This document shows positions 2,141 to 57,700 of a DNA stretch of 64,000 bases, one piece after another. Numbering within the stretch: the first letter of the stretch is position 1; each line of letters opens with the position of its first letter. The notes below the pieces were generated by a model. That model saw only the letters and a list, made by a program, of their open reading frames with translations. It had not been told where the DNA came from and did no database searches. The position numbers and the translations under genes are program-made. This DNA comes from Intoshia linei (Eukaryota > Animalia > Orthonectida), in assembly GCA_001642005.1 (NCBI GenBank), contig LWCA01000024.1, forward strand, positions 13,970 to 77,969, read 5' to 3'.

Positions 2141-2751
2141 ATGAGACAGGTATTTATGTATAGTTATGTAATTTTATATTAGCAATATAATTACATTCAT
2201 TATTGTGTAATTAAAATAAAATTTTGATTTTGATTTGTGGGCATCTAATTTTTTTAAATTTAGATAATTTTGTATAAGGGGAGTGCATTCATTGTAATAA
2301 AAGTGCGATTTTTTACTGAAATTTGTACAATCTTTTAAATCTTTCAAATTATTGTGTTTTGCAACTTTCGGCTGCTAAATAGATTATTTAAATGTAAATT
2401 TACACGTAATGATATACATAAAAGTAAATTATGGAATATTTCTTTGTTACAAGAGTAATCAAAAACTATTAAACCCACTATTATGAAAATGCTCTTTCAC
2501 ATGACTATGTTCGGTTTTAACTCTTACGAGATTATGCTAATTTTCAAAATAGAATTAAAAAAATTTAAATTATATCAAATACATTAGTTCTTTATAATAA
2601 ATAAGAACTAGCAATTGGCCCAACGATCAAAACGACCGATAAAATTAAAGTTAAATTGTATCTAATACTTTTAAATAGATTTAAGATTAAATATATTGGG
2701 GAATATTATACATAAACTATGATAGCACCATATACATTGTATAATGTATAT

Positions 2752-3085
2752 CAAGGGTTCTCCACCTATTTTTAGAATCGCCCACTTAAGCCCATTATTC
2801 ACACATATTTAAAGATAAATTATTACATTTATAAAATTTATTATATTGTTTATTATTAACAATATAAAAAATTTAATTTTAAATATACTCTGAAATATCG
2901 ATTAATTCATAAATTAACTATACGAATATAGTCTTAATTTTAAGATTTTGACAACTATATTTTATAATTTATTAACTCTTTTTAGAGATTATTTTTGATT
3001 TATTTTTGTTATTAATAAAAAAATTTTTAGATTAGGTATTTTGTGAAATAAAATAAAAAAATCCTCACACCGTTGAAAATCCCTG
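2752..3085. mobile_element. hAT (Buster-like) MITE
   Basis: CAAGGGTTCTCCAC...GTTGAAAATCCCTG flanked by a perfect 8-bp TSD ATGTATAT (2744-2751 and 3086-3093). Confidence 0.75.
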
Positions 3086-3118
3086 ATGTATATTATAAAT
3101 ATGTATTCTTATATTATA

Positions 3119-12400: not shown

Positions 12401-15400
12401 TTAGTTAAAACTCATACATATAAAATACTTATATAAATATATTCTTGTTTTAATTAATAACTGTGAATTACATATTGAAGAATGGCATAAAATAAACAAT
12501 GTAATTTTTATATTTCAACCCAATTTTTATATTATATAGTAAAACTTTTATATAAATTTGATTTTGTTAACGTACACATTTTATATACAGATTTACTGTA
12601 TTTTAGTGCAAATTTTAAATTTGATATATAAATTATAACTAATACTAAATACAGGCATACTATACCTAACGAAGTAGCAAAAAATACCGTCTTTGACTCA
12701 CAATGGTTTAAAATTTCTCAATGCGTGTATATCTTTTTTATATTATTGGATCTCATTCCTTGTTTTTCGAAATTAACAATTCACCTATTAATGTTTTGAA
12801 TATTTTTTGATGTGTGTTATCTGGATATAATTATTTATGTTTTTTAATTTTTTTTAAAATGATGGGACTATTTATTTTTTTTAAAAAAAGAGGTAATTTG
12901 TGGTTTTGATCGTGAAGATAAGATTTTGAAATTGAAGTTTACATAATATTAATGGTTTGAAAATCTTTATCAAACTGCATTTTTTATAATTCTAGGACTC
13001 GTTTGAATTTTACAATAAAGGATAATTGCGATTTTTGACCTTGAAGGACTTAATTTCTGAAAATGAAATTGGTGATATAACATTCCCCTCGAAAAACTGT
13101 AATTTTTAAAACTCGAATCCTCTTACTTTCTTAAATAAACTGGAACGAACAAATAAATAAACAGACATTGATTATTAACTAACAAAAATAATAAAAAAAT
13201 AAATAATAATGTAAATTACTAATTAAATTATGTATCTAAGGATTTACCGTTATAAACTTGTTAAAAAATTGATTTCTCGATTGCCAACCTAGAGGTATGT
13301 ACTAGGCATGCCTATACTAAGTACTGTGATGTATTGATGAGTATAAATATTAATAATACTTTTTAGCTTGAAAAGGAATTTAGCCAAATTGAAAATATTT
13401 TAAAATATTTTAAGGAGAACCAATCTAATGATATTGAAATATCAAATAAAAAAAACAATGAAAAACTTGAATTTAGCAAAGAAGTACATCAACTAAATAC
13501 GATAAATGTTTTAAATTTAATTATAATTACATTAAAAATAATTATATAGTTATTGAGCGACTTGATGAAAACTGCCAATTTAAGTTTAGAAAATTTAGAA
13601 TTTATACCATACATTACAGAGTACGCAACTAAACTTAATGAATACCCTCTAGCAAGATTTCAAAAGTCTGATAGTATTTTCAATGTAATTTTATCATTAA
13701 ATGTATATAAAAGTTTAGAAATCATTATTCAATGAAGAGATTGTTACGTTCAAAGTGATTGAAAATAAATATTTTTATGTAATACTAACTTTTTATTTTT
13801 TACCGCATAAAAAGAGTAGATAGCTGTGAGGAGGAAAGTGTCTATATATACTTTTTTAACATACCTTATTATAACACATTTTATGTTTAATATACAATTT
13901 AAGCTGTTAAAAATATATTAAAAATTGTGACCATCACTTCAAAAAGATTCTCAGTCTCGTACTAATGTGATACTACTAATAATATAAATATTATCGTAAA
14001 GTCTTTTATAAAAGCGTCTACTACATGTAATATTCAATTTAGGAAATATTTCGATACAATTTGCCAGCAATTATATTTCCACGACTCTTTTTCAAAACTG
14101 CATCCGAAAAAATTGTGCAATACAGATTAAAATATACAAAGTACACAAATATTTTAAATTTTAATAGAGACCACTCACCCTTTGAGTTCATGCATTATAA
14201 CAAAACTGGTATCATAAAGTTAAAATATATGCACTATACAATGTATAGCATACATATATGACATATTTCAACCTATCTGATTTTCGATTATACAATGAAA
14301 TTAATAATAACTAATTATATTATTGTGAATTATAAAATTTAGAATGAAACATGCAGTAATGAAACGTGAATCAGAATTTCACAAAACGGATAGTATCTAT
14401 TCAATAATAAACACAATTGAATTTAATGTATATTTAAAACAAAATTATAAAGATCTCTCACGACTATTAAAAGAACTAGATTATTCAATTAAAAATACAG
14501 ATGAAAATTTTAACAAAAAAGTATACAATAGTAAAGAGACTGAAAAATACATTAAATGCATCAATAAATGTATTTATCTTGTATCAAGGTTGGATAAACA
14601 TGTATACCAATTAAAATTAGAAAAGAAGGAAACTGGATTATTTAACACACGTGTAATTAAGCATTGCAAAAATAAATTGAAAATATCAAACTATAAAGAG
14701 AAAAAGGTTTATATTGAAAATTTTTTTATTAACGAGAAATTTGATATCAAACTAAATCAAGTAGAAAAGTATTACAAAATACAATTTGATTTTCTTCGTG
14801 AAAACACAGGTATTGTTCCAAATATAAATATTGAATCAATTGATCCAAAAACATGTATTGATTACAAACATAACGATGAATTAGCATACCAAGAGTATGA
14901 CTTGCGTACAAATTTATATCAAAAATTAAATGCATTAAAAAATATGGATGAATTTCAAAATGATTTTTGCTTAAATGTAATAAATAAAGGGAAAATTAAT
15001 GCACTGATTACATTATTAGATAAAAATTTGCAGCATCCTAATATCGCAGTAAAAAACACGGATTATATTTCTGAAAGTTATAATGTTACATGCTATATGG
15101 ATAATGATTTTGGCAGATTTAAATCACTGAAAAATACGGCCAACACGCAAGAGTTGAATAAAATAAATTCATATTCAAATCTCAAAGAAAGTTTAAACAC
15201 CTTCAATACAAATCAAAAATTAACTGACCAAAACGCTGATAAAGGATTATCTAAACAAATTGGCAGACAAAATCAATCTGATTCATCTAATCTCAACAAT
15301 TTTGATAAGAAAAAGTCACACAGTAATGTTAATTTAAATGAATTGGACTTTAACAATTCAAATATAAAAAATTTTTGTCCAGACTATTTTGACGATGAAA

Positions 15401-18400
15401 CTTATAAAATGAAACATTGTGTAAATTTTATGGAAAACAGAAGTATACATAAATTTATTGAAAATTCAAAAAATTCAAATTCTGGGCAAGAGACACAGTT
15501 TGACAATGGTGATTCAGAAGCTTCCATTACATTTGTTAATAAAACAAAATCAAGGAATGTTTATAAAGACAATGATAAAAAGGATGAAGATCCAGGAAAT
15601 AATACGAGTTTTTCAGGTAATTCGTCATTGAGACATTTCAAAAATGGAAATAATATTTATAAGAATAATCGGTCTGAACGTTCCGATTCCAAACATGTTT
15701 CGTTTGAAGATGAAGTAGATAAAAATGATTCAAATAATGATACTTTAACTTGTAGTGGTGAATCCAATTTGGTATCAAACAAAAACAATGCACAATCAAG
15801 TTTTCAAAATAGAAATGATGAATATATCAGAAAACAAAACACAGATATTTATAGGAATGAAAAGATGAACAATTTTTATAATAAAAAAAATGAGATTTCA
15901 AATAATTTTACATTTTATAATGCTAAATCTAAAATTATCGGAATACCTTATGATTATTCTATTGATCAAAATAAAAAACAATTCACTTCATTGGAATCAG
16001 ATGAGCTCAAGAGTCAAAACGATATATTACAACATATGCCTACTAATCATATGTTTGTTCCCAAGGATAAACATGGACACAACGTCATTATTTCTCATTT
16101 TTTAGCTTCAGGTGATAATTACCGTCAGAATGAGGTACTGGAACATATACAGGCAAGCAACTTTCCGGTTACCAAGGGTGCGATAATGAAGGATAACGAT
16201 ATTTTACATTTATTTCATTGTGAAAACTTTAGTGATCAAAATTCCACAAGAAATATTTCTTCTACAATTACTAATGTCGTTTCCGGTGGCGACAAATTTG
16301 AAAAATCAAATGTTAACATTTCTTTGAATGTCAATCGATTTAATGACGAACCTAGTATGCCGAATTATGCACATGGCAAGATAAAAGAAATTGAAACCCA
16401 TAAAAAGAGTCAAATATTGAATAATATTCCATTAATGGAAGCTAGTAGAGTTGAGAATGAAAATTATCTTCAAAGATCTTTAACTTTAAAAGATATTAAG
16501 AATAGATATAGTTTCTTCAGTAACTATGATAGTTATAAAGAAAATATTTCATTTTCATCTCAACCCAACATAATTAAAAGTGAACCTACTGACTTTTGTT
16601 ATAAAGAAGACACACCTGTCATGGATAATCCTAAAAATGGAACCTTAAACACTTATTCCAATTCAATTAAAAGGTATGATGATAATATTAATGTTTTCAA
16701 TCGTTCATTTGAAATTAATAATGATTATTCAAATAACAAGTATCCAAAAATATTAGCCGAATATCCGCATATTAAAAGTGTTAATGTTCCATTTAGTGAA
16801 GAAATACATCATGCTTACGATACTAATGATATGCGATTAGAAAATACCAAAAAAAAATCTAAAATAGAATCACGGTGTCCACCTAGTGTAGTTCAGGACT
16901 ATGATTTTACCAATGAAACGTCTAAAGAGGCAATGTATCTAACCGGTCCAGGTAATATCCAGTGTAATAAACTGGAAAACTATCCACAAACACTTTTGAG
17001 GTCAATAACCTGTAATGAGAACAGTAAATCTTGTGACATGTTTCAATTAAAAACTGAAAAAAGGAAATTTGATTCTTATGATTCATTAGATGAAAAATAT
17101 TCCAATACTTTATTTAATAAAATGAATGAAAAATGTAAAAAATATTCATCTGATACTACTCTGAACAGTAATAGTAACAGAACTAAAAGGAAACAAGATT
17201 TACAAGACATCAAGAACAAGTATAAAATGTTTTTATTCAATAGTGAAGAATCAAATGATGAACAAAATGTAATTAAAGTAAACAATTTTAATGATGATTC
17301 TGCATTAAATAAGTCAAACAGTTTTATCAATTGTTTCTACTTGTCAAACGACGTGAATAATGTAAATTTAGATGTTTGTGAAAATTTTAAGTTTAATATG
17401 ATTAATAAAAGTAAAAATGAAGTATACGTTGGGTTGCAAATTAATGCTAATAATAATGATAAACAGAAGGAGATCAATGTAGAAAAAGATTTAGAAATGA
17501 AAAAAGTACTCTTAGACGATAAGGATGTTCAATTTTACAACACTGAAAGAATTAATCAAATCAATTCAAAGCCAAATTTTCACATTAAAATTCAACCAAT
17601 TCATGAATACAGTGATAATACCACCAACGATGCGACGAGTACATCATCTTATATGTATAATTTTAAAAATAGTCCCAAAACAAGTATATCAGAAAGAGAT
17701 AACACAGAGATGTCATTAAAGAATATTTGTAATATCAGAAAACAACGAGCAACTAGTGTTAATCATAAACCGTATTGCAAATATGATGATGAGCTGAAAT
17801 TAGGAAATCAACAGAGAAATAGTGATTCAGAAACAATTAAGATTCGAACAAACGTGAAATGTAGATTAATTTCTTTGGAAGATACACCCAATATCACTGA
17901 CAAGTATATTAATGAAAGTATAAAGTCATTAAACATACATCAATCCAACCATTTACTAAATGAAAGATTTGATAATTCTAGAATTTACAGTGAACTGCCA
18001 ACTAGTGACGAAAAAATTATTCTAGATAACGAACAAAATGAGACTGTACACCAAAAAGAGGTAAACATAATCGATGATTATACAAATAAAATTAAAAAAC
18101 ATTTCACATCAAAAAGTAAAAAATGTGACATAAAAAAAGTTTCAAATCTACCAGAGAACAGTTTTATTGATCTCGAAACAAATTCGGATACATCATTTGA
18201 GGATAAAGAATCATTATTAAATAATGAACATATGAAAAAACAATATCCAATAACCAACTATTTAGATATTTTTAATAAAAAAATGGACATGTTGAATAAT
18301 AATATTAATAAAAAAACATGTACACTAAAAAATACAAAAAACCAGAAACCTATATCTAATCTAATTTTGAATTATAACAGATTTAATCAAAAATCCAAAA

Positions 18401-21400
18401 TTACCCACAAAGAATCAAACGACTCATCCATACATATTAAAAAAAAGATGAAAATATCATTCAAAAATAAAACAAAGAAAATAAATTATGCAAACATTTC
18501 AAATGTTCTAAATGTTACCCTTAACAAAGATTCAGATAAATTAAATAGTTCCAAACAATTTAAAGCCAAGCAAACACTGAAACCTAAACTAAATGGAAAA
18601 AATAGAATCGACAATATTGGTATCAAAAGTGATAAAAAATTTTACACATTAGAAAAGAAATACACGAGAAAAAGAAGCAACTCTGTTAATTCCCAAATTG
18701 TTGAAAAACCGAAGTATGGACTCAATGAAAAGTATAATAAAAATCAGTGTAAAACAATTTTTAACAAAAAAAAATTATATGGAAGCCATAATCTCACTTA
18801 TCACAAAAATTATGTTGAAAAATCAATTAGATTAAACTGTAATTTGATAAACAAAATTAAACATGAGCCAAAAAAAAATAAAACCAATCAAATCGTAAAA
18901 ACTAGTAAAAATGAAAGTGAAATTAAAAATTTACTTTCATGTACCGGAAGAAATTATAAAATAGCAAATATTAATAACAATAATTTGTATAATATGAATA
19001 ACTTAAACATGTCACCATCAATTAATGACCTGAATCAAAGACAACTTATTACAATAACCGCTCAAAAATCTAATATTAATAAAAACAAAATTCGACCAAT
19101 CAAAACTATCACTGTTATTTGTTACGACTCCTTAAAAATAACTGGTGAATCGTTTTTAAATTACAAATTGATTGAACCAATCAAACCAAACTTATTATTC
19201 GACAAAATTTTAAAGAAATTTCCAATGTATGCACTTGATTATGAAATCAATCTACAAAATAATGATATCGATTCACATTTATCACAAACACTGAATAGAA
19301 CAATAATTGTAAATCCTTTCAAATTAAACTTTACAACAATGCAGCCAATATTATCTCGAGCGGACATTGAATATGCGCATAAAAATAAGATATCAAATAA
19401 AGATGCATTGTTCAATCTAGGATCCAAAAAAATTAAGCAACACATTTATTTTTCGAATATTGCTTTTAATTTAAAGACAAAAATAAGTATTTACTTCAAT
19501 CAAAACAATATCAATAAAATACTATTGAAAACTTTTAAATTAAATGAAAAATTGATTGGTATGCAAAATAAACTCCAATGTTGTAAATTAAACACAATTA
19601 AATGGAAACATCAATTTAATAACATTGAGGTAACCATTTTTAGTTAGGTAAAATGTAGTAACACCAGGGAGAAAAAAACTACATTGCAACAGTAGTCAAG
19701 TGATTTTCTTGGAAAGAGTCTACCACCCTAAAGGTTCAGTGTGCTCCTGGTAAAAATTTGTATCCGTTAAGCAAACCATAAAAAGTTATATTACGTATTT
19801 TATGAGTTTGCTAGATATCTATTATGTACTTTGTACAAACAGTAGCTAGCTCAGTCGAAGCCGGGCGTTTCAAGGTTTAAGTATATTTTTAAATAGATCA
19901 ATTTTTTTTAAATTAAAATTTAATTATCAAACTTAAACTATCTTTTTGGGGATTTTGGAGCTCAGCACCGAACCTGCCATACCCGAGGCCATTTGGGTGA
20001 CGGTTGGAGTGTGTAACGGTAGAGATCGTAAAGCGTACCTCTTTTTTACAAAATTAGCGTTTAACCCTCAGACCCTATTAGCCACGTTTAAATAAAAATA
20101 ATTAAAAAACTAATTTAAGTTAAGTTTCAAAAAAAAAAAAATATAAAATCCTTACTTAAATAATATGCTATGCTATTTTTTTTTGTGTGTGTGTTCTACT
20201 TTATTGAAATAACTACCAGTCTTAGAATTTTATAAATTCCACATTTCAAATACAGTTTTTTCTGGGGCGTATAATAAGATACATTTTAACCCTCAAACTC
20301 ACATCTTACAGGTCAAAAACCTTAATTGTCCCTCTTTTTGAAAATCAAACGAGTTGGAGAATTCAAAAAAAAATATATACGCTGATACGAATTTAAAAAT
20401 CATAAATATTACCATATATTTAAATTTAAAAAAAATATATCTTCAGGGCCAAAACACCAAATTACCTGTTTTTTTTAATGAAAACAGCCCTAGAATTAAT
20501 ATAATTACAGGTGCTACAGTTGTATCCTGTTAACACAAAAAAAATGTCAATGTGAATAAGTGACGCCTTCATGGTCAAAAAATCATTTTAGTATTCATAT
20601 ATTTTTTTTCCGAAATATTTTATTAAAACAAAAAATGTCAAATAATTAACAATTCTAAAATTAAAAAAAAAATTATTCTGATAGAGCTTATTCCAGTTGA
20701 TATAAATACAAAAGTTCAACCCGAGAAATCTTTGCATTCCCGATGAAAAATAATTTTTAATATATTATCAACCAATATTTTTTCAAATATTTCGTTAAAA
20801 TAAAAATTGAAAATGTAAATATTGATCCTANTCAACCCGAGAAATCTTTGCATTCCCGATGAAAAATAATTTTTAATATATTATCAACCAATATTTTTCA
20901 AATATTTCGATTAACAAATATATAACAAATTTGTAAAATAAAAATTGAAAATGTAATATATAATATATAATAAATAAATATAAGTAAGGATATTTAAAAA
21001 ACTTTAAAGAATTTTAAAAAGCTCAATTTCACAACGTGACGTATTCACGGTCAAAAAAGCATTTTAGTATTAATTTTTTTTATTTGGTGACTATTTTATT
21101 AAAAAAAAATGTATCCAATAAATAATAGTCCTAGAATTTAAGAAATTTTTATTTAGAATCACTTTTCAGTTTTTTCTTGTATAAGCTTATACAAAAATAA
21201 ATTTTCTTAAAAAATGTAAAATAAATTTATTATATTTGTTACGTTCCAATGAAAAAAATCTCAGCATCGGGATTAAAACATATTTTTAGATTCTATCAAA
21301 AGATTCAAAATTAATAATACAAGAATATAAAGATATTAAAAAATATTATACTGAAAATTGTTATAATTTGGACAAAATGTGCCAAATAAAATTCAAAAAG

Positions 21401-27935: not shown

Positions 27936-30900
27936 CTAATGTAAAGGTCCACTTCGACTAAGCACATGCAAGAGTCTATAAATGTTGACGCTGTTACCAT
28001 GCATGGCATCAGATATTGTTTGATCCAAATGAATTTCAATAAAATTGATTGAATAATAAAAAATGTAAAATAAAAGAGCTGGTTTCAGGATGGAATATGA
28101 TAAATATCCAGTATTGTTCACATCCATCATTTGTAAAGACTTGGCCAATTTCAAAAATCTGTCAAACCAACCTTCTTCCATACGAAATTGTTGAATGTAA
28201 GGTGAATATTTTTTTATTTCGTTGTGCATGTTGAAATCAGCGGTTACTTCATTTTGCATAGGAATTTTTTCAATTTCAAATTTTTCTGTATCAGGTACTG
28301 GGTTAAAAGATGCATCTAATTTTTCAGTTTGAATTTTAGGTTCATATGTTTGATAGTATGGTGATTCTTTTTTTGTCTGAGTTTTCTAAAATTGATGTAT
28401 AACTTAGCATTAATTATAACGTATGCTATTTATTTTTTGAATATTCAGATATTTTATGTTTTTTTGATGCATCAATCTCAAATTACCTCGGTTTCATAAT
28501 CTTGGTTATAAGGACTAAAATAGTATCCAATGTAATCGTGGCAACTAAATTTTTTATAACACGTAAATGGCATATTTCCAAAAATTACTTAATTAATCCG
28601 TATTTTGTAGAACATTTTTGAAAAACTTTGTCAATTTCGTCTAGATCGAGATTTTTATTAATTTGCATGTGTGTACTTATAATCTAAATGTTTCAATTAC
28701 ATTTTAATTAAATTTTGCCAATGCAAAAAAATTTATATAAGATAAATTAATATTTACATACTTGATGTTATGAAGTAAATATTAACCGATTTTATTTTTT
28801 AAAAGCATATTAAAAAATATAAAATTGAGTCATACACAAAATGGTTTTTTATCGTTTTAAAAAAAGTATCAAAAGTTGACACCGTAGTGACTAACTTATA
28901 AGTTAGTTCAGAGGATAGAGAGAAAACAAAATTTTACTTTGTATTCTAAGATTTAAATTTTATTTCGTTTAATAAATATAGTTCCGTAGTGAATTATTTT
29001 TATCTTGTATATTGCAGGGATGCCAAACCTGTCGATTGCGGATGATTTTCTAGTGAATCTCCAAAGTTAAAAAATTATAAAAAGTTTTTTATTTTAATAA
29101 TACTCGTTAAAATGATCTCTATTTTAAAAAAATTATTTTTAATATTGTTCAAATTCAAAGTTAAAAAAATATATGGATTAGTTCACTATTTCTTAAACTA
29201 GGTTTTGCCAATAATTTTCAAATATACAGCGAAAGTGCTACGAATTATTCCGAATTTAAATTTTTAATTGTGTTCCGCAAGACGATTTTTTTGAAATAGG
29301 TTCCGATTAGATACGTTTTTCTAGACAATTTTTAGTGCATGGGTTTTTAACCTTTTTCTATTTGGCACCCAAAAAGATAAATAAACTTAAAGTGAAAAAT
29401 GTAATAGTAAAACTATGGTAACAAAAAATTTCTAGGTTAAATGCCTTTAAATTTCAATTAGGAATTATTTTTTAACATAAAAAACCCTGTGATTTATCTA
29501 TTTATTCTAGTATTTATCAATATAATTTATTTTAGTGAATCCATAACGAATATAACTATCACTCTATTTACTTTTTTTGACATACATGTATGTTAATATT
29601 TATATATTAAAATATTTAATATTTAAAAATGTTAAATTAATAAAAAGAATTTGGCATTATATTAACTTTATTTTCGAAAATTAATTGAAGATTAAAAGAT
29701 ATAGCTGTAAAATGATTTTTATTTAAAAATTTTCTGCACCCCAAAAACTGGTTTGGAACCCCTGGGTGCAGGAAACCCAGGTTAAGAACCAATGTATTAG
29801 TGGATCGTCATTCATTCAAAAATTTTAAAATCGATCGCATCAAAAAAATTTGGTCTTCCCTTCTCTTCTGGTGTATTGCATATCGGGTCGGAATAGAATA
29901 TAAGAGTAGGGGCATTTTACAGTATTTACATGTTAATAATATTTTTTATCAAAATTTTCACAAATATAAAGCATAGTGCCACGTCAAATCGTACATATAA
30001 TGGTAAATTAACCTCATGAGCCATGATGACTTTAATTTAAAAAATTTTACAAAAAAATAAATATGGATTGTTTAATTGAAAGTATACAAAAAGTAATTAA
30101 ATTTCATATTTAATTATATTTTTTCGAATAAAATTAAGGAGAAACAATGCTTGTCAAGTATACGAACCGGACATACAAGGACATACTTTTTGGCTGAGCT
30201 CACTTAGAATTTGGTGGCTACCAGATAGTATCGGTTGAGAAACACTGATGTACATAAATAAAAAAATTGAAGGGCGATTAGGTGAGAAAACTCTACCCTA
30301 ATGTACATTTACACTAGTAAAAGGAAGAGAGAAATGTGATAATAAATGTAAGAATATAATAATCATGATTGTAATAGATCAACTTAACAATATAAAAACA
30401 AAATTTGAAGCATAATATATAAAATTTATTACCTCTTAATTAAATAAAATTTATTGCCAATCTGATTTACTGATCTCATTTCAAACAATTTAAAATAACA
30501 AACTGTACGAACAAATTTTTAAAATTTACCCAGTTAATGCACGCGATATTCTATTAACATGTAAATAGAATAATGTAATCAAATATATATTATAGTAACA
30601 TCTAATTGGATTAATATTTTACATTTTCTACTCTTTCCCCTTAATTATAATAAACTTAAATAACCCAAAAGCTTGTTCACGTGAAAATTAAATTATTTTA
30701 AAATGATAAGTTAGTAAACGAATATACGTGTTTTGAATTTGATTTTTTAATTGAGAAAAATTGACTTATTATAGTGACTCGCGAAAATTTTGATTATTAA
30801 TTTTTTTAAAATATCGAAATATATGATAATAAATTATGTTCACAATATAAAATAAAAATAATTTAACATACTTGGTATTTGGTGAAGTAGTTACACTTGG

Positions 30901-31917: not shown

Positions 31918-40676
<8,759 letters not shown>

Positions 40677-49240: not shown

Positions 49241-51777
49241 AATTTAATTAATGTTAACAAACAAAAAATTAAGATGAAATAATTCACTTTAAAGTAAAAA
49301 GTAATGTGATGTATGATTTCAATGATATATTTATGAAATTTTTGAAAATCCGATTATTTTTCTCTGATTATTGTAAGCAATTAAAGGGTTTTCGATTAAT
49401 CGATTAATCTGATATCATTCCCTACTTCACACGTCTGTGCATTCTATGATATACACAGCATAATTTTGAAAAACTTTATTTTTTTATTTTCGTACATTTT
49501 CACATAGGTAATTTAAAAATAATATAAGTTTAAATTAAAACATAAATTCCAGACGTGTGGTGATCAGGGATTGGAAATAATTGATTGCAATCAATTATTT
49601 TGTATAAACCAATTAATTGTTTGCTAAATATTAATTTTTCAATTAATTAAAAAATGAAAAGATAATTTTCAATTAATTGGTTTTTTTCATATAACTGAGA
49701 AAATATAAATTGAATCCTTTTATTGACGAATGGTTGGATAAAAACGATGTATTTAACCTACATGCTTGACTTTTATGTACTTCGAACAAACAGTATTCTA
49801 GTATAAATCTCCAAATTTATTAACAAAGTTATACTTACGTTGCTTCTAAACCAGAGTTTATTAACCGGGGTGTAAGATTTATTTAAAGGATGCTACAAAA
49901 TTATAGAAATTTTGTAGAAAAATTATTTTTATTTTTTATATTTTGACAAAATAATTTCATAAAAATATTAAATTATAAAATATAATTCAATATTTTTACT
50001 ATTTCAAATTAATTTGAGTCGGGTGGTTTGATTATGACCTAATAATATAATTATGTTTTCTTGTTCAAAATTTAAAGGGCTTTCATAAGATATAAACCAT
50101 AATTTTCTACTAAAAAGTTATTTACTAGTGTAGTATATAATAATAAAAAATAATAAAATAATTTTATTAGTATAATTGATTTTTCTGGCGGTATCTAATT
50201 TAAGAGGAACATTCTTTATTAAACAATAACTAAGAATTGTGTTTACATTTAGAAAAATTTGATTCTAAAACAAATTTTATGTTTTTTTAAATTCTTTCAA
50301 GACTGCCATTTATAGAAAAAGTGTAATTGACAAGTAATATATATCGAAGTTATCCGGTAATCATGAACCATTTTAAAAGTGTGGGTGTTTATAGAATATA
50401 ACCATTGATTATAACATACATTTTAGTATAGTGTAGTTTTATTATAAAATTACATTTAATGATATAAAAACATACAAAAAATGAGTGTACAAAATTAAAA
50501 ATATTTTGTAGGCAGATTTGTCCGCGTCGGAAAAATTTTAACAGGTTTAAGTGAAAATTGTTTTAGAGTGGTTTCATGTTTGAAAAAATGGTACCCGTGA
50601 ATGAAGAGAGGCCTCAGATTTAGTGATTTATCTGTTACAGTTCTTTAAAAGTGTTTTCATCTTAGTGTGTGGTTACAATTAAGTTTTTATCGAATGTTGT
50701 TATTAATTAGAGAATAGTTGAAATCAATGTTTAAAAGTTAGTGAATCTTTATATTGGCTAAATAATTGTTATAACCCTACAAAAACGTTTATTTTTTATA
50801 TCGTTTTATTTATTTCGGTATTTTTTACTAGTAATGTTAAACATTGTAGGTAAATATGGAAATTTAACCAATATGATGAAATAATTTTAAAATTTGATAC
50901 ATTGTATACTGATACCTAATCGTGATTCTATGATATTCATTTATGATTTCAAGTCTATGTAGAATGCAGACAATGTTTTGATGACTATTAATTCTATTAA
51001 AATTATATATTTATTCGTTTCAGTCAATCTAAATTTGAATATAATAATGATTTGTTGTTAATTCTGATTTTTGTTATAATTTTGATGAAATAGTAAAATA
51101 ATATTAATTTCAGTCGTGAATATTTTAGTTTTTAATAAATATTCTCGTATCAAGTTAAATTTATGTATATTTATGAATTTCCACACATAATTAATTTATT
51201 ATATTTTTATTAATAATGTAATTATTGTTATTGATAACTCTAAATTGTATAATTTCTGTATAAACAAAATTTGTGAAGTAGGTTATATTTTTAAAAATTG
51301 TAATTGTTATACATTTGATATAAATGAAATCGCTTGGATTTGACATCGTATAAAAATATTATTGTATAATTTTGTTTTTGAATAATTGTATTTGCATGAT
51401 AAATTCCAAAGCAGATTCAAGTTGATCTAAAATTAGAATAAAATAGACAAATTTGAAATTTTTAGCAAGTGAATGGTGACATTAATATTTTTAAAATAAT
51501 ATTTGCTTATATCCAATTCCACGTATTAATAAGATTAAGGATAAATTTTTATATCAATTGAATAATTTTTTATGTATAATCCTTTAAAATTGTAAAATTT
51601 GTGTCTTAATTAGAGTTAGTCTAAATATACGTTTTTAATCCGTATTTGTATTTATAAATGTGTCTTGTGTGTTTACTTTAATAAGGATGAGTTAGTATGT
51701 TTGAATATATTCGACCTAAATATTAACAATTTACTGTTTATATTAATTTTGTTTTTTTAATTTTGCATTTAGTTTTG

Positions 51778-54700
51778 ATGAATTCTATTGCACCGGATAA
51801 TTTACAACTTAAAGGAGAAATTATGGCGACTCAGTCGCCTTCATTGTTACAGTCATCTAGTTGTTCACCTGAATCTCATCCCGATAAAACAAATACCATG
51901 TCTCCAACATATCAAAATATTGCTCATAGCCAAGATTTAAAAGATATTTACATTTCTAAAACTGTTTTTAAAAATTATGATGATGAGCAATTTTACAAAA
52001 CCAGTCCACCTATATACAATTCGGGAACTAGGATTCATAAATTTTCTGAATCGTCTACAATAAATGCTCATGCGAATTCTGATGATAAAAGTTTAAAGTC
52101 TGAAGATCATGATGAAAAAATAAAGAATGAAAACAATTGTAATCATCGACGTAAACAGTCTAAACCAAATAGAATTGCTAATCAGATGTTACCAGATACT
52201 TTATCAAATTCTGAAAAAGATTTAGATTCGAAAAAGCGACAATCTGAGGACGGTAATTCTAATGGCGATATTAAAAAAATTAAAAACTCTTCACCTTCCA
52301 ATTGTAATGAAAGTAATGATACTGACAAAAATTGGTTAACTCAAGAAATTTTGTCCATTTTAGAAAATTCACCGAATGAAAATATTTTGAGTGCTTTGAA
52401 ACTTGGCGATGACGTAAACAATGGAAAAAAGGAAAATGTTCAAAATTATGTTCAACAAATGCTATATTATCAAACTTTGAAATCTATGGAAAATAATATT
52501 ATTAATAGTTATACATATACTGATGGTAGCAATAATACAAAAAAAATTAAAAGTTTAGCGAATGATGAAGACAAGGTAGCTAAAAATTGTGATAATTTCT
52601 GCAATTTATGTAATAAAACATTCTGCAACAAGTACTATCTTCGTAAACATAAATCGGATGTTCATGGTTTAAATAATGATGATAAGGAAGAAAAGGAGGA
52701 AAATAAACATTTTCACTCGTCACCTTCGGAAAGTTCAAAAGATTCGGAAGCTTCACAGTCAGATACGCCAAATATAATTTCTTGCAAGTTGTGTGGGAAA
52801 AAATTTATCAATGTTATTTTTTATTCAATGCATATGCGGTCCCATCAAGATAAAAATGTTGTACATGATTTATCAAAAATTCCTGAAAATGCTCAATTCC
52901 GTTCTGATAAAGAAAGTTTTAGTGATGTCAATGTTAAAAAATGTGAAAATTATTCCGAAATTTTACCCAACCAAAACGGCGACTCAATTGATGGTGATGC
53001 AAATATACTACATAAGGAATATACTAAATGTAATGCACCTCTTATTCAGTATCTTAGTGGAAAGGCGTCAGAAAGAGTTAAATGCCGAATTTGCAATAAG
53101 GTAGAATATTTTATCTTTATTTTTTTTGATTTTAATCAAATTTGTAATCATTGGTGTCCAATTTTTGTTGGGGTGTTTAGTGAGTTTCTTTGTTTTATAA
53201 CATAATTGTAATGTATAAGTTATTGAAAGGTTTGATTTACTTTATGTAATACCCCGTGAGTATTTTACTCATCATTGATTTTCACTTCTGTTTTTAACCG
53301 ACTTATTATATTATTCTATTCTATTTATTCCTCTAGGACAGTGGTTCCCAAACTTTTTCAACCATGCACAACTTTTCATCAAAATCTCTTTAATCCTGAA
53401 CACATCACTAAGGAGATAATTATATATTTTATGATACATTTCGATCTAAAATTTTACATTAATTATGAAGTTGTAGCTTCTATGGTGTAATTAAAAAAAT
53501 TATTCATTTCAAACATACATTTGGCCAGTTTACAGTGTCGAACCTACCGTATTCGATATCCCTCTTTGGGCCTCTACTAAATTTTTGTAAAATGGGGCAT
53601 CATAATTAATATGGTTGTTAAATTTATAATGTCTCAAGAGCCTTAGATAGGGGCTAGGGTTATATGACACTTCGTTCGTTTGCAAAAATTTTTAAGAGCT
53701 ATTTTTCCATTTTGGGAGTGGCCACCAGCTTGCTAGTTTCGGCCTTAGGAACTAATATCGAACTACATTATAACAACATGCTACTGTATGTTAAATCGTC
53801 ACATAAGTTAAATTTAACGCAAGTGAAAATTATTTACGTTATTCAGTAAAAACTCACTTCATTTTGATAAAATGACGTTTACGTTCACTAATAATAATAA
53901 ACAATATATTATCATAATAAATAACCTTTTTTGAAAAGTGCCCAAAAAATGATGGTAATTATAATATTCTATTATGTATTAAATTAATTGAACGATGATA
54001 GTATTTAATCATAGTAAGAAAGTTGATAAAGATTCGTTGATGGGGTATATCACACAAAAAATAAGCATTTATTTAAAAAATAGATTTTTATAGTATTAAA
54101 AAAATATAAATAGAATTGAAAATTTGATAAACGTATGAATATTGAGACAAGACAATAACAACTTAATATTTACATAATATCTGATAAAGACAAATGTAAC
54201 TTTTTATCTTTTAATAATTGAGCTATTTTTAATTTTGTGTCATAATTTAATTTATCGTTCACTATTTTCATTTAAAATTTTTGTAAAAAAATAAAGTGCC
54301 CCAAAACGAGTTTTATTTGACACTTATTTATAGGAAATAATACATAGTACTATGAAACTAATAAAATATTTTAAAAGGCTTCCAAAGGCGGGGTGCCCGC
54401 TGCCGAGGTTCGGCTCAAACCTGGGTCGGACTGTATAATGTAATTTTATTATTAAAAAAAGGTTATCTTCATTTTATTTAAATTTTTTCTTGTAAACCAC
54501 TTTGGGAACCACTGCTCTAGGACATGGATTCTTTACATTTATCTACTTGGCACCCAAAAATTTAATAAACCTAATTTCGAAAAAAGTTATTAATATCACT
54601 ATAATAAAAAAATATTACTACACTTGAAGTGATAGTTTTGATGGCTTTAAATTTAAATTAGAAAAAACGTTTGAACATAAAAAACTGTTGATTGTCCGAT

Positions 54701-57700
54701 TTACTAATATCATTTATTTTAGTGAACACCGCCCAAAACTAGTTTAACACCCAGGGGATACCAGAACCGTAGGTTAAGAACCCATACTCTAGGACAGTGC
54801 TTTTCAACCATTTTTGGTTGACGACACATATTTCAATTTCAAAAAATTTCGCGACACACCAATCAAAAAAATAAACAATTGATTGATAAATATAGTTAAA
54901 CCAATTTTTTTTTAATAATAATCTGAAAATAAGCTATGTAAAATTGATCATCACTAAAAATATCTTTGATTTGCATTTTTACGTTTTTCAATTGTATTGT
55001 CTGCTAATGGAATTGAAAAAAAATTAAATAAAATTTTAAGTTTGGCGGCACATCTGGAAATCATTGGCGACACATAAAAGTGTCACGACAAACCGGTTGG
55101 AAAGCACTGCTCTAGGACATAGAGTCTATACCTTATATATAATAGTCAAGGGACAACTCATTTCACAGATGAGGAGGCATTCCAATAATTTCAAATATGT
55201 ATGAGGCTGCAACATAAGATTACAAAATATATGGCTTATTAAATATTGATGGTTGATTTATAATTTGAAAAATTAATTCTATAAATGATATTATTTTATT
55301 CTATAAACTGGCTTGACTGCTTTGCACTTTTTATAAACAGTAGAATTATAGTTACAACCCTAAAAAATGGTCTTGAGTAGCATGAATTCGATATAAAATG
55401 TAATTGTAAATATGTGTAGTATATATTACTTTCTTCTACCATCTCACTGCGATAAAACATATCCATTTCCAGCAATTGAAAACAATTGATTGCAATCAAT
55501 TATTTTGTATAAACTAATTAATTGTTATCCAAATATTAATTTTTCAATTAATTGATTTTTTTGCAGTTAATTGAAAAACGAAAAGATAATTTGCAATTAA
55601 TTGGTTTTGTTCATTTAAGTGAAAAAATATAAATTGAATCCTTTTATTGACGAATAGTTGGATGAATAAATTAATTAAAATTTTTTTTATGTAGTTCAAA
55701 AATTAAATTTAATCATTATACATTATAATTTATAACAATAAAATATTACAATTAATGTAAATTGTCAAGTTGACAGTGTTAACACTTGTTGTAGCGTATC
55801 ACAGTCCCACCGTGCTTTAATTATTTCCAGAAACAATTGTATTTCCAAATTCGAAGGAAGTAATAAAATAAAATGATATGAAAATGGTTTCTAAATACTA
55901 TTTTGCAGATAAAATATAATGTTACTAAAATAGTTTGATAATAAAAAATTAACAACTTTTAATTATTCTATGCAATTTTAGAAAAATAGAAACTCGTTTG
56001 TCACTAGAAAAATGATTTATTTAACCTACTAGCTTGACTTTTATGTATTTCGAACAAACAGCATCCTAGTATATTCATTATAACCACATAACCAGTTTTT
56101 TGAAAATGATTATGACATTGTTATCAATCTTCAATTAATTGAAATTTTTTTATATTTTAAAAAACCTATAAAAAACCATATTTTTTCATAAAGCAATTAA
56201 TTGAATAATGAAAAAATATTTTTCAGTTAATTGCAATTATTTCATATAAATCATATTATAATTATATCATATTAGTTTCATATTATAATTGATAATATTT
56301 TCAATAATTTTTATCAATTAATTACAATTAAATTGGTTGCAATCTATTAATTTCAATCCCTGTTCATTACCCCTATTTCGATTATTAAACAATGTTATTA
56401 TAAATACTTGGTTGTTAATAATATATTAAAATTTATTTTTGACGGGAAATGCGTAGATTTCTAAGGTTGAAATTGACCAAATAAAAAAATTAATTTAGTG
56501 CTTTTTTTTACTACGAAGGAGTCACTTTTTAAGATTGAATTTTAGTGTATTTAAACTGAACATGACTATTGGCTGAGATTTTTTTAATCATTGGATTCAT
56601 TTTATTAAAAAAAAAGAGTAATTTAAGTTTTTGACCATGAATAACTCAATTTCTGAAAATAAAATTCGCAACAAAACATTACTTTTGGAAAACTGTATTA
56701 GAAATTTGATTTGTTTAAGCTGTAAACTGTGGAACTTAAATTTTTAAATAAACGGTTACAAACACACACACATTTAATTTTATATTAATTGAAGATTGTT
56801 GCTAAAAACGTGTGTCTGTTTGTTTGTATGTGTATCACCATTTATTGAAAAAACTCATAGTACCATAAATTCTCAACAAATCAATAACAGAAGTTCTAAG
56901 TAATTTTTATGATTTAATTTATTTTCATCAATTCTCATTTGATTGAAATTTTTTTACAATTATTTTTGTAAATATGAATTTACATTTATCTTGAAAAATG
57001 ACACATTTATGACAATTTGGGTTATATGTAAATATAAGATTTATTTATATTTTTTTAATTAGTGTAACCTAATATATTTATTTTTAACCGTTTTTTAGGA
57101 ACTTTGTAACAAGTACTTTTTAAAAACTCACATGTCAAAAATTCACAATATGAGTCGGTTCACCATCATATCTCCAAACCGGAGAACTAAGGGAAAGTGT
57201 CTAAGTATGTCTGGGATGCCTTTCATAAAATCAGAAGAAGATGAAACAACCGAAAGTGAAGGTATCAATATGGTTTCAACCTTGAAAACCTCTTCGATGA
57301 ATGGTGCTCCCAGTCAAAACATTTTGAATTCTAACAACCGACATCTTATTCAAAATACAATTGAAACGAATGGTTCAGTAAACATGGAAATTGATGGAAA
57401 CTCAACAATTGTTTGTATAGTTTGTTTGGCTACATTTGATAACCATGATGCTTTGAAAGAGCATTTTACTAATGTAATTTTGAATGTGCATTTTTTATTT
57501 GTATTTAGTTTCATGTTAAGAACAATACTCCGATTAGTAATCTTGAAAAAAATTATAATGGTGAAAATAATCACCGCGATCCATCTGTTATTCGAGTAGA
57601 ATGTCCAGTATGTAAAAAAGAAGTTTGCAACAAATATTTTTTAAAGGTATTTTGAAAAATATATATTTTTGATAAATATAATTTTGATTTAGACGCATCT

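Follow-up and report, generated by a model that had tools for sequence, protein, structure and literature searches.

Three non-autonomous hAT-like elements arrayed on a single 8-bp target sequence in an intron of Intoshia linei

A stretch of 64,000 nucleotides from the orthonectid Intoshia linei (NCBI GenBank assembly GCA_001642005.1, contig LWCA01000024.1, positions 13,970 to 77,969 of the forward strand), called here the window, is A+T-rich eukaryotic sequence with 25% G+C and a single N at 20831. It contains a C2H2 zinc-finger gene, one intron of which holds three transposable elements (TEs), E1, E2 and E3. The elements stand end to end and are separated and bounded by four copies, T1 to T4, of the 8-mer CTCTAGGA. 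This arrangement, the stack, is the subject of the present analysis. Its components and the adjoining parts of the gene are listed below; TIR stands for terminal inverted repeat and MITE for miniature inverted-repeat transposable element.

51727..53100, + strand: upstream exon (open frame) of the C2H2 zinc-finger gene, ending ...VKCRICNK
53101..57098, + strand: host intron, GT...AG, 3998 bp, phase 0 (between codons), defined by frames and splice sites
53331..53338, unstranded: target copy T1 (CTCTAGGA), native left flank ...TTATTC
53339..54514, + strand: E1, non-autonomous hAT-like element, 1176 bp, TIR CAGTGGTTCCCAAA, 14 nt, perfectly inverted
54515..54522, unstranded: target copy T2 (CTCTAGGA), from the 8-mer search
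54523..54786, + strand: E2, MITE, 264 bp, ends CATGGATTCTTTAC / TATGGGTTCTTAAC, 11/14 inverted
54787..54794, unstranded: target copy T3 (CTCTAGGA), from the 8-mer search
54795..55109, + strand: E3, MITE, 315 bp, TIRs CAGTGCTTTTCAACC / CAGTGCTTTCCAACC, 14/15
55110..55117, unstranded: target copy T4 (CTCTAGGA), native right flank CATAGAGTC...
57099..57599, + strand: downstream open frame, beginning ELCNKYFLKTHMSKIH and completing the split finger

The intron has its donor (AAG/GTAGAA) at 53100/53101 and its acceptor (TTTTAG/GAA) at 57098/57099, and it interrupts a C2H2 finger between ...VKCRICNK and ELCNKYFLKTHMSKIH. Donor, acceptor and frames agree with an earlier note on this DNA, which had placed the array in an intron splitting a zinc finger. 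Pfam zf-C2H2 matches the upstream exon at E = 0.0003, a score that does not reach the curated cut-off, and no relatives of it were found among proteins of its length class. Public sequences came from four runs of two studies in the form of short contigs, which at 85% likeness are mainly other copies of the element families. One contig of run X2, 1864 nt long, has zero differences over 52603-53101 and then leaves the genome sequence at the GT donor, a departure consistent with a spliced zinc-finger transcript. The stack accounts for 44% of the intron, and its visible effect is growth of the intron from 2.2 kb to 4.0 kb, with no function implied. Other repeats are present in the same intron, for example a family starting at about 55475 (55475-55610), where ten X1 contigs begin to match; this repeat has a 93% match at 49570-49612 and includes a local palindrome.

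The 8-mer starts at 53331, 54515, 54787 and 55110 and has no other occurrence on either strand of the window. Dinucleotide-preserving shuffles gave it a mean of 0.18 occurrences, and none of 100 shuffles produced four. The intervals between its copies are 1176, 264 and 315 bp long, each being an intact element with its own TIRs, and every copy directly adjoins one or two TIR ends. A blind scan of the window for 8-bp direct repeats with TIRs immediately inside returned 27 pairs. All three stack intervals are among them, their TIRs matching at 14/14, 11/14 and 13/14 positions; another pair combines the outermost ends, E1 5' with E3 3' (11/14), and the remaining 23 are low-complexity pairs made of A and T letters only. 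The four positions and the three TIR elements between them, as reported in the earlier note, are thus confirmed by both the 8-mer search and the blind scan. The layout T-E-T-E-T-E-T is that predicted by a model of serial insertion: the E1/E2 and E2/E3 junctions hold exactly one 8-nt duplication between intact ends, and T2 and T3 equal T1 and T4.

E1 is a long form of its family. An internal segment of about 540 bp (approximately 53904-54440) is absent from its relative in the window and from most contigs of the family; several E1-family contigs, found in both public organisms, have 26-35 other letters in its place, with joints that skip 535-562 nt (runs X1 and X3). Some portions of the segment are represented by near-identical copies at higher depth, and a G+C-rich stretch lies within it at 54388-54425. 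An RNA or tRNA origin of the latter piece was considered and rejected, since neither Rfam nor ARAGORN gave a match; the Rfam and tRNA search covered 53000-55600 and found nothing in that region. The ends of E2 are the most decayed of the three: CATGGATTCTTTACA carries 3 mismatches to the family TIR CATGGGTTCTTAACC, and the 3' terminus reads ...CCCATA against ...CCCATG in the family, a terminal G-to-A change. E3 is characterized by an 11-nt subterminal motif (TTSGCGRCACA-like) present in four copies. No open frame of at least 90 amino acids lies inside the stack. All three families are multi-copy, with at least 18, at least 6 and at least 18 X1 contigs carrying E1-, E2- and E3-like sequence, respectively.

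The description of the three elements as unrelated, given in the earlier note, applies to their interiors, which have no mutual similarity at E <= 0.001 (BLAST within the window), but not to their ends. Compared over 15 positions, the ends of E1 and E3 match at 10-12 and those of E2 match the others at 7-9, and all six stack ends fit a window-wide TIR consensus, roughly CAGKGGTTCYCAAMC, that is common to about 20 ends. Because all ends fit this one consensus, the three elements were probably mobilized by a single transposase or by close relatives with a common target preference.

Two of the families have a solo relative in the window:

33542..34211, + strand: solo E1-family copy, short form, its 3' end at 34203 followed by GAGTAGAC, its 5' end decayed or truncated
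29330..29802, + strand: solo E2-family copy, 29338-29794, bounded by a duplication of its own, TTTTAGTG / TATTAGTG, 7/8 match

The E1 relative is matched by BLAST over 33542-34168, at 69% identity in 581 columns and 85% in another 65. For the E2 relative the BLAST match covers 29338-29539 (67% identity), and the full extent of 29338-29794 was established by reading the sequence. No relative of E3 was found by BLAST within the window. E3-like copies are plentiful in the contigs of the two public studies (18 X1 contigs at position 54838), and six X1 contigs cease to match exactly at 54795, the letters before it being different. One contig of the second public organism has an E1-like 5' end with a flank unlike that of the stack except for its last five letters, TAGGA. 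Since relatives of two families carry other flanks, the 8-mer is target DNA and not element sequence, as the earlier note had maintained; the divergence of E3-like contigs at 54795 speaks for the same conclusion.

Transposons of the hAT kind have short TIRs beginning CA/TA-R-N-G. The ends in the stack start with CAGTGG..., CATGG.../TATGG... and CAGTGC..., and their inverted repeats are 11-15 nt long. Exact 8-bp repeats surround each of E1, E2 and E3, and the relatives of E1 and E2 in the window, together with the copies in public contigs, place the elements in multi-copy, non-coding families. A search of the window with the three end motifs, allowing up to 3 mismatches, yielded 21 distinct ends. 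The end at 29764 was left out as a subterminal motif inside the E2 relative, and the remaining 20 correspond to 12 independent high-confidence insertion sites. TA occupies positions 4-5 of the adjacent 8 bp at all 12 of these sites, the TA frequency of the window being 0.117. With a position matrix derived from these 20 ends, 29 sites in the window reach 11 bits or more, compared with 3-7 in ten shuffles; the nine additional, weaker profile matches, which are not seed ends, have a central TA in four cases, and about 3-7 such matches are expected by chance.

The target consensus is nnnTAnnn for the Buster family and nTnnnnAn for the Ac family, as given in the parts of two reports that concern us here (PMC3517528, PMC3499496); CTCTAGGA breaks the Ac rule at position 7. 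By the characters of their ends and targets, E1, E2 and E3 are classed as non-autonomous hAT transposons of Buster type. The assignment made in the earlier note, to hAT-like elements whose 8-bp duplications follow the Buster pattern, is therefore upheld at 12 of 12 independent sites. A close parallel in the relevant part of PMC3517528 is Mar of Drosophila willistoni, a non-coding Buster-family hAT MITE with TIRs CAG..., 8-bp duplications and the target nnnTAnnn. Mar and the stack elements are alike in TIR start, duplication length and target consensus; the families are different, and a transposase that would give those of the stack a place in a tree was not found in the window. Buster-type elements are mobilised by a transposase that has a hAT dimerisation domain and belongs to the Buster clade.

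We propose, as the likely history of the locus, that three non-autonomous hAT-type elements inserted successively into one TA-centred 8-bp target, each time re-duplicating CTCTAGGA. When a hAT element integrates, its transposase attaches the element ends to the target strands at points 8 bp apart, and the 8 bp between them are duplicated as the gaps are repaired. At this locus, an 8-bp staggered cut around the central TA would have been followed by repair leaving a copy of those 8 bp on either side of the element. In this way the target would be doubled rather than destroyed, each copy remaining open to a new insertion in the same register, and a second and a third integration around the same TA would recreate the identical 8-mer each time. 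With related transposases that share a target preference, in an element-dense genome, some sites would be used repeatedly. That one site was used three times, with re-duplication of the target at each event, was also the view of the earlier note, and it is the simplest account of four identical 8-mers. Because the three families differ, every unit of the stack must represent a separate insertion, and because the three interiors are unrelated, the array cannot derive from one element by unequal exchange, amplification or rolling-circle copying. The geometry is compatible with any order of events; E2 was probably inserted first, since its ends are the most decayed, and E1 and E3 would then have entered its left and right target copies later.

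The preference of these elements for their targets bears on how often such repeated use should occur. The stack site has the form nTCTAGnn. CTAG cores are found at 100 of about 7,494 independent TA sites (1.3%) and at 2 of the 12 used sites, an enrichment with P of about 0.01 (binomial, calculated by hand). In a symmetrised matrix made from the 11 other sites the stack 8-mer falls in the top 1.3% of window positions, and nTCTAGnn is a good match to the target preference of the window. For the 24 target copies, the number of re-hits expected, conditioned on used sites, is 0.09-0.30. With a target matrix drawn from 11-12 sites and a window, assumed to be typical, that was picked for holding the stack, the figures of this motif-only model are not decisive.

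Several observations count against serial insertion. With 15-30 insertions per window, 0.003-0.007 insertions are expected at the stack site, and for the 24 target copies together, two or more re-hits have a probability of 0.004-0.04. A site hit three times would be rare locally: the same model gives 0.0015-0.019 such sites per window, or one per about 50-700 windows with this density of elements (approximately 3-45 Mb). Both the blind scan and the pairing of ends revealed no double stack in the window beside the triple one. T2 and T3, on either side of what seems to be the oldest element, remain identical, which is somewhat unexpected if E2 is old; their identity indicates that E2 is not very old. 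An autonomous transposase was not found either, a hAT domain being present in none of the 12 open frames scanned, out of 20 window frames of at least 90 amino acids. Independent contigs bridge one of the four junctions, that of E3, T4 and the right flank, by an X1 contig of 496 nt (55018-55513, 2 differences). Finally, the first 15 bases of the right flank (55118-55132, CATAGAGTCTATACC) are in the top 0.2% of window positions for the TIR matrix. This likeness is unexplained; it could be fortuitous, reflect what is left of an older element, or be a property of the target. A fourth, older element starting at 55118 was considered and dropped, since neither a partner end nor a degenerate CTCTAGGA with a TIR-like neighbour was found to 59.5 kb downstream and 3.8 kb upstream.

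The low local rates would also be accommodated if a transposase bound to the TIRs of a resident element captured the next excised element and steered its integration to the adjacent target copy, so that the array would grow. We regard this as an unlikely, though not negligible, origin of the stack, and we are slightly more doubtful still of the general proposition that Buster-type transposases are drawn to the target copy next to an end already in place and turn an occupied site into a self-extending mixed array in exact register. The six ends fitting one TIR consensus would allow a single transposase to bind both resident and incoming elements, two re-hits in this window are improbable by motif alone (the P of 0.004-0.04 given above), and the weakly TIR-like native right flank points in the same direction. 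Moreover, the + strand TCTAGGA sites at 12991, 19416 and 39024 are empty, and the stack site was used three times. However, the window was selected for holding the stack, which makes a per-window probability no test; one of the three empty sites lies inside a long open frame; and the probability that three insertions among four sites sharing the 7-mer all fall on one site is 0.06-0.2 by hand calculation. None of about 14 other ends in the window has a neighbour with a shared duplication, and no description of exact-register homing for hAT elements was found in the open-access literature. In a rough model, many triple stacks are expected in a genome of hundreds of megabases from motif preference alone; for this reason motif preference is sufficient and homing is not required. 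The suggestion in the earlier note of re-targeting next to existing ends is thus not needed at the motif-only rate of thrice-hit sites. If homing arrays did exist, they would amount to target-site "memory" in a transposon system, and they would offer introns and TE islands a way of growing at fixed points.

The 1.8 kb could instead have been built elsewhere and moved on its outer ends, or different inserts could have been joined by recombination between alleles. The outer ends (E1 5' and E3 3') are 11/14 alike and may suffice for such macro-transposition. However, a moved unit would carry an outer duplication unlike the inner spacers, and here inner and outer 8-mers are identical, which excludes a pre-formed composite moved as a unit. 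BLAST found no second copy of any junction within the window, E3-like copies in public contigs occur without E2 before them, and allelic recombination would still require three insertions into the same site and, in addition, crossovers inside an 8-bp span. Taken as a whole this origin is very improbable, and we give as little credence to an assembly artefact, in which separate repeat copies were misjoined at short common strings. It is true that all three elements are multi-copy repeats, that the junctions have 13-16 nt in common with each other, and that junctions 1-3 are unbridged by contigs at 98% likeness. Yet assemblers work with words longer than 13-16 nt, misjoining would not put an exact 8-bp duplication at six of six intact TIR ends, and the one covered junction is confirmed with 2 differences in 496 nt. 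At 98% likeness the left flank, all of E2 and the 5' half of E1 are uncovered, and missing cover is not evidence. A joint skipping a whole element, as in an empty-site form, was not seen in the short contigs of the four public runs; the exact 35-nt end of E3 had no match in metagenome contigs, and the exact 25-nt end of E1 had none in genome contigs. Least probable is a reading of the 8-mer as a functional repeat, that is, an attachment or recombination site or a unit resembling spacer acquisition, and not a by-product of transposition. The repeat-insert-repeat layout is the sole point in its favour. Against it, the 8-mer is absent from the rest of the window, the inserts are ordinary TIR elements with relatives in other flanks, no RNA family or tRNA is present in 53000-55600, and the locus lies within an intron in a eukaryotic gene. 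The other flanks of the solo copies by themselves contradict this reading.

The same layout led the earlier note to an analogy with arrays of clustered regularly interspaced short palindromic repeats (CRISPR). The likeness consists in the repeat-insert-repeat order and in the duplication of the repeat at each acquisition, and it goes no further. CRISPR-like arrays have repeats of at least 20 nt, a leader, Cas genes and short spacers; the stack lies in a eukaryotic intron, has no Cas, leader or RNA, and gave no Rfam match. Its "spacers" are complete transposons of 264-1176 bp and its "repeat" is an 8-nt by-product of a staggered cut.

Serial insertion has closer parallels among transposons. In the portion of the work of McGurk & Barbash 2018 (PMC5932611) that deals with tandems, P-element dimers of Drosophila are separated by an 8-nt target duplication and form preferentially at near-consensus targets, a tandem of the hAT element hobo has one 8-nt motif between its TIRs, and "two insertions at the same target site" are named as a general route. 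Like the stack, these dimers consist of intact elements end to end with one 8-nt duplication between them and reflect repeated use of a preferred target. They differ in being, as described there, two copies of one family, expandable by unequal exchange, whereas the stack combines three families and is not expandable by exchange. It thus shares the identical junction duplications of double-insertion tandems and departs from their same-family composition. SaTar MULEs, described in part of Valdes Franco et al. 2018 (PMC5907723), form arrays in which unrelated Mutator-like elements are linked through microsatellites and never nested. They have in common with the stack a linear, non-nested order of unrelated non-autonomous elements and a short repeated linker. 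In that account the linkers are microsatellites of variable length, the TIRs are long and Mutator-like, and the authors favour something other than plain cut-and-paste; the stack, in contrast, has a unique 8-mer linker of exactly the duplication length, as plain cut-and-paste predicts; its TIRs are 14-15 nt long, and it is not an array of the SaTar kind. In rice and maize, MITE multimers and nested MITEs arose from independent insertions into or beside other MITEs (Jiang & Wessler 2001, as cited in the review PMC5172404). As far as that review's summary goes, these clusters are mostly nested or use 2-3-bp TA/TAA targets, at which sharing of the duplication is trivial, in contrast to the 8-bp target and uninterrupted elements of the stack. 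The architecture itself has precedents, since both tandems that keep the target duplication and non-nested arrays of unrelated elements are already described in the parts of PMC5932611 and PMC5907723 just cited. No account of three elements from different families stacked on one unique 8-bp hAT duplication was found in the open-access literature searched.

Two further elements in the window belong with these families:

2744-3093: MITE of 334 bp (2752-3085), same TIR class, with a perfect 8-bp duplication ATGTATAT on both sides
37974-40396: hAT-like element of 2407 bp (37982-40388), flanks TTCTAGAT / TTGTAGAT, 7/8 match

The ends of the longer element resemble different subfamilies (CAGTGATTCCTAACC versus the E2-type CATGGGTTCTTAACC, 11/15 alike); the element is perhaps a hybrid, perhaps a larger non-autonomous one. 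The 102-amino-acid frame within it has no Pfam match. When partners for single ends were sought by their duplication, 37982/40388 was the sole pair, and the other eight ends stay single. A further family of ends, C[GA]GCGTTTCCCAAATGTCGG, is represented at 485 (+) and 44236 (-), 44 kb apart, with TA-centred flanks TCATAACT and GCGTAAAC. The window also contains an uninterrupted open frame of 1772 amino acids at 14329-19647 (+), which gave neither a Pfam family at E <= 0.01 nor a usable match in the ESM Atlas. SMC-like frames with hinge and N-terminal domains lie at 34239-37089 (-), the solo E1-family copy ending 36 bp away; their best database relatives, from a plant, protists and a fungus, are 24-27% identical.

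The stack is a clear mixed-family example of a known, uncommon effect of target-site preference and not a new mechanism. Because its different families rule out recombination and amplification, it is an unusually clean natural record of one 8-bp site used three times by cut-and-paste transposons. The duplication left by a staggered cut preserves and multiplies a good target, and a few preferred sites can take an outsized share of insertions, here nearly doubling an intron. If stacks proved commoner across the genome than the motif predicts, homing would be indicated, with a bearing on the formation of TE islands and on the design of Buster-based gene-transfer vectors.

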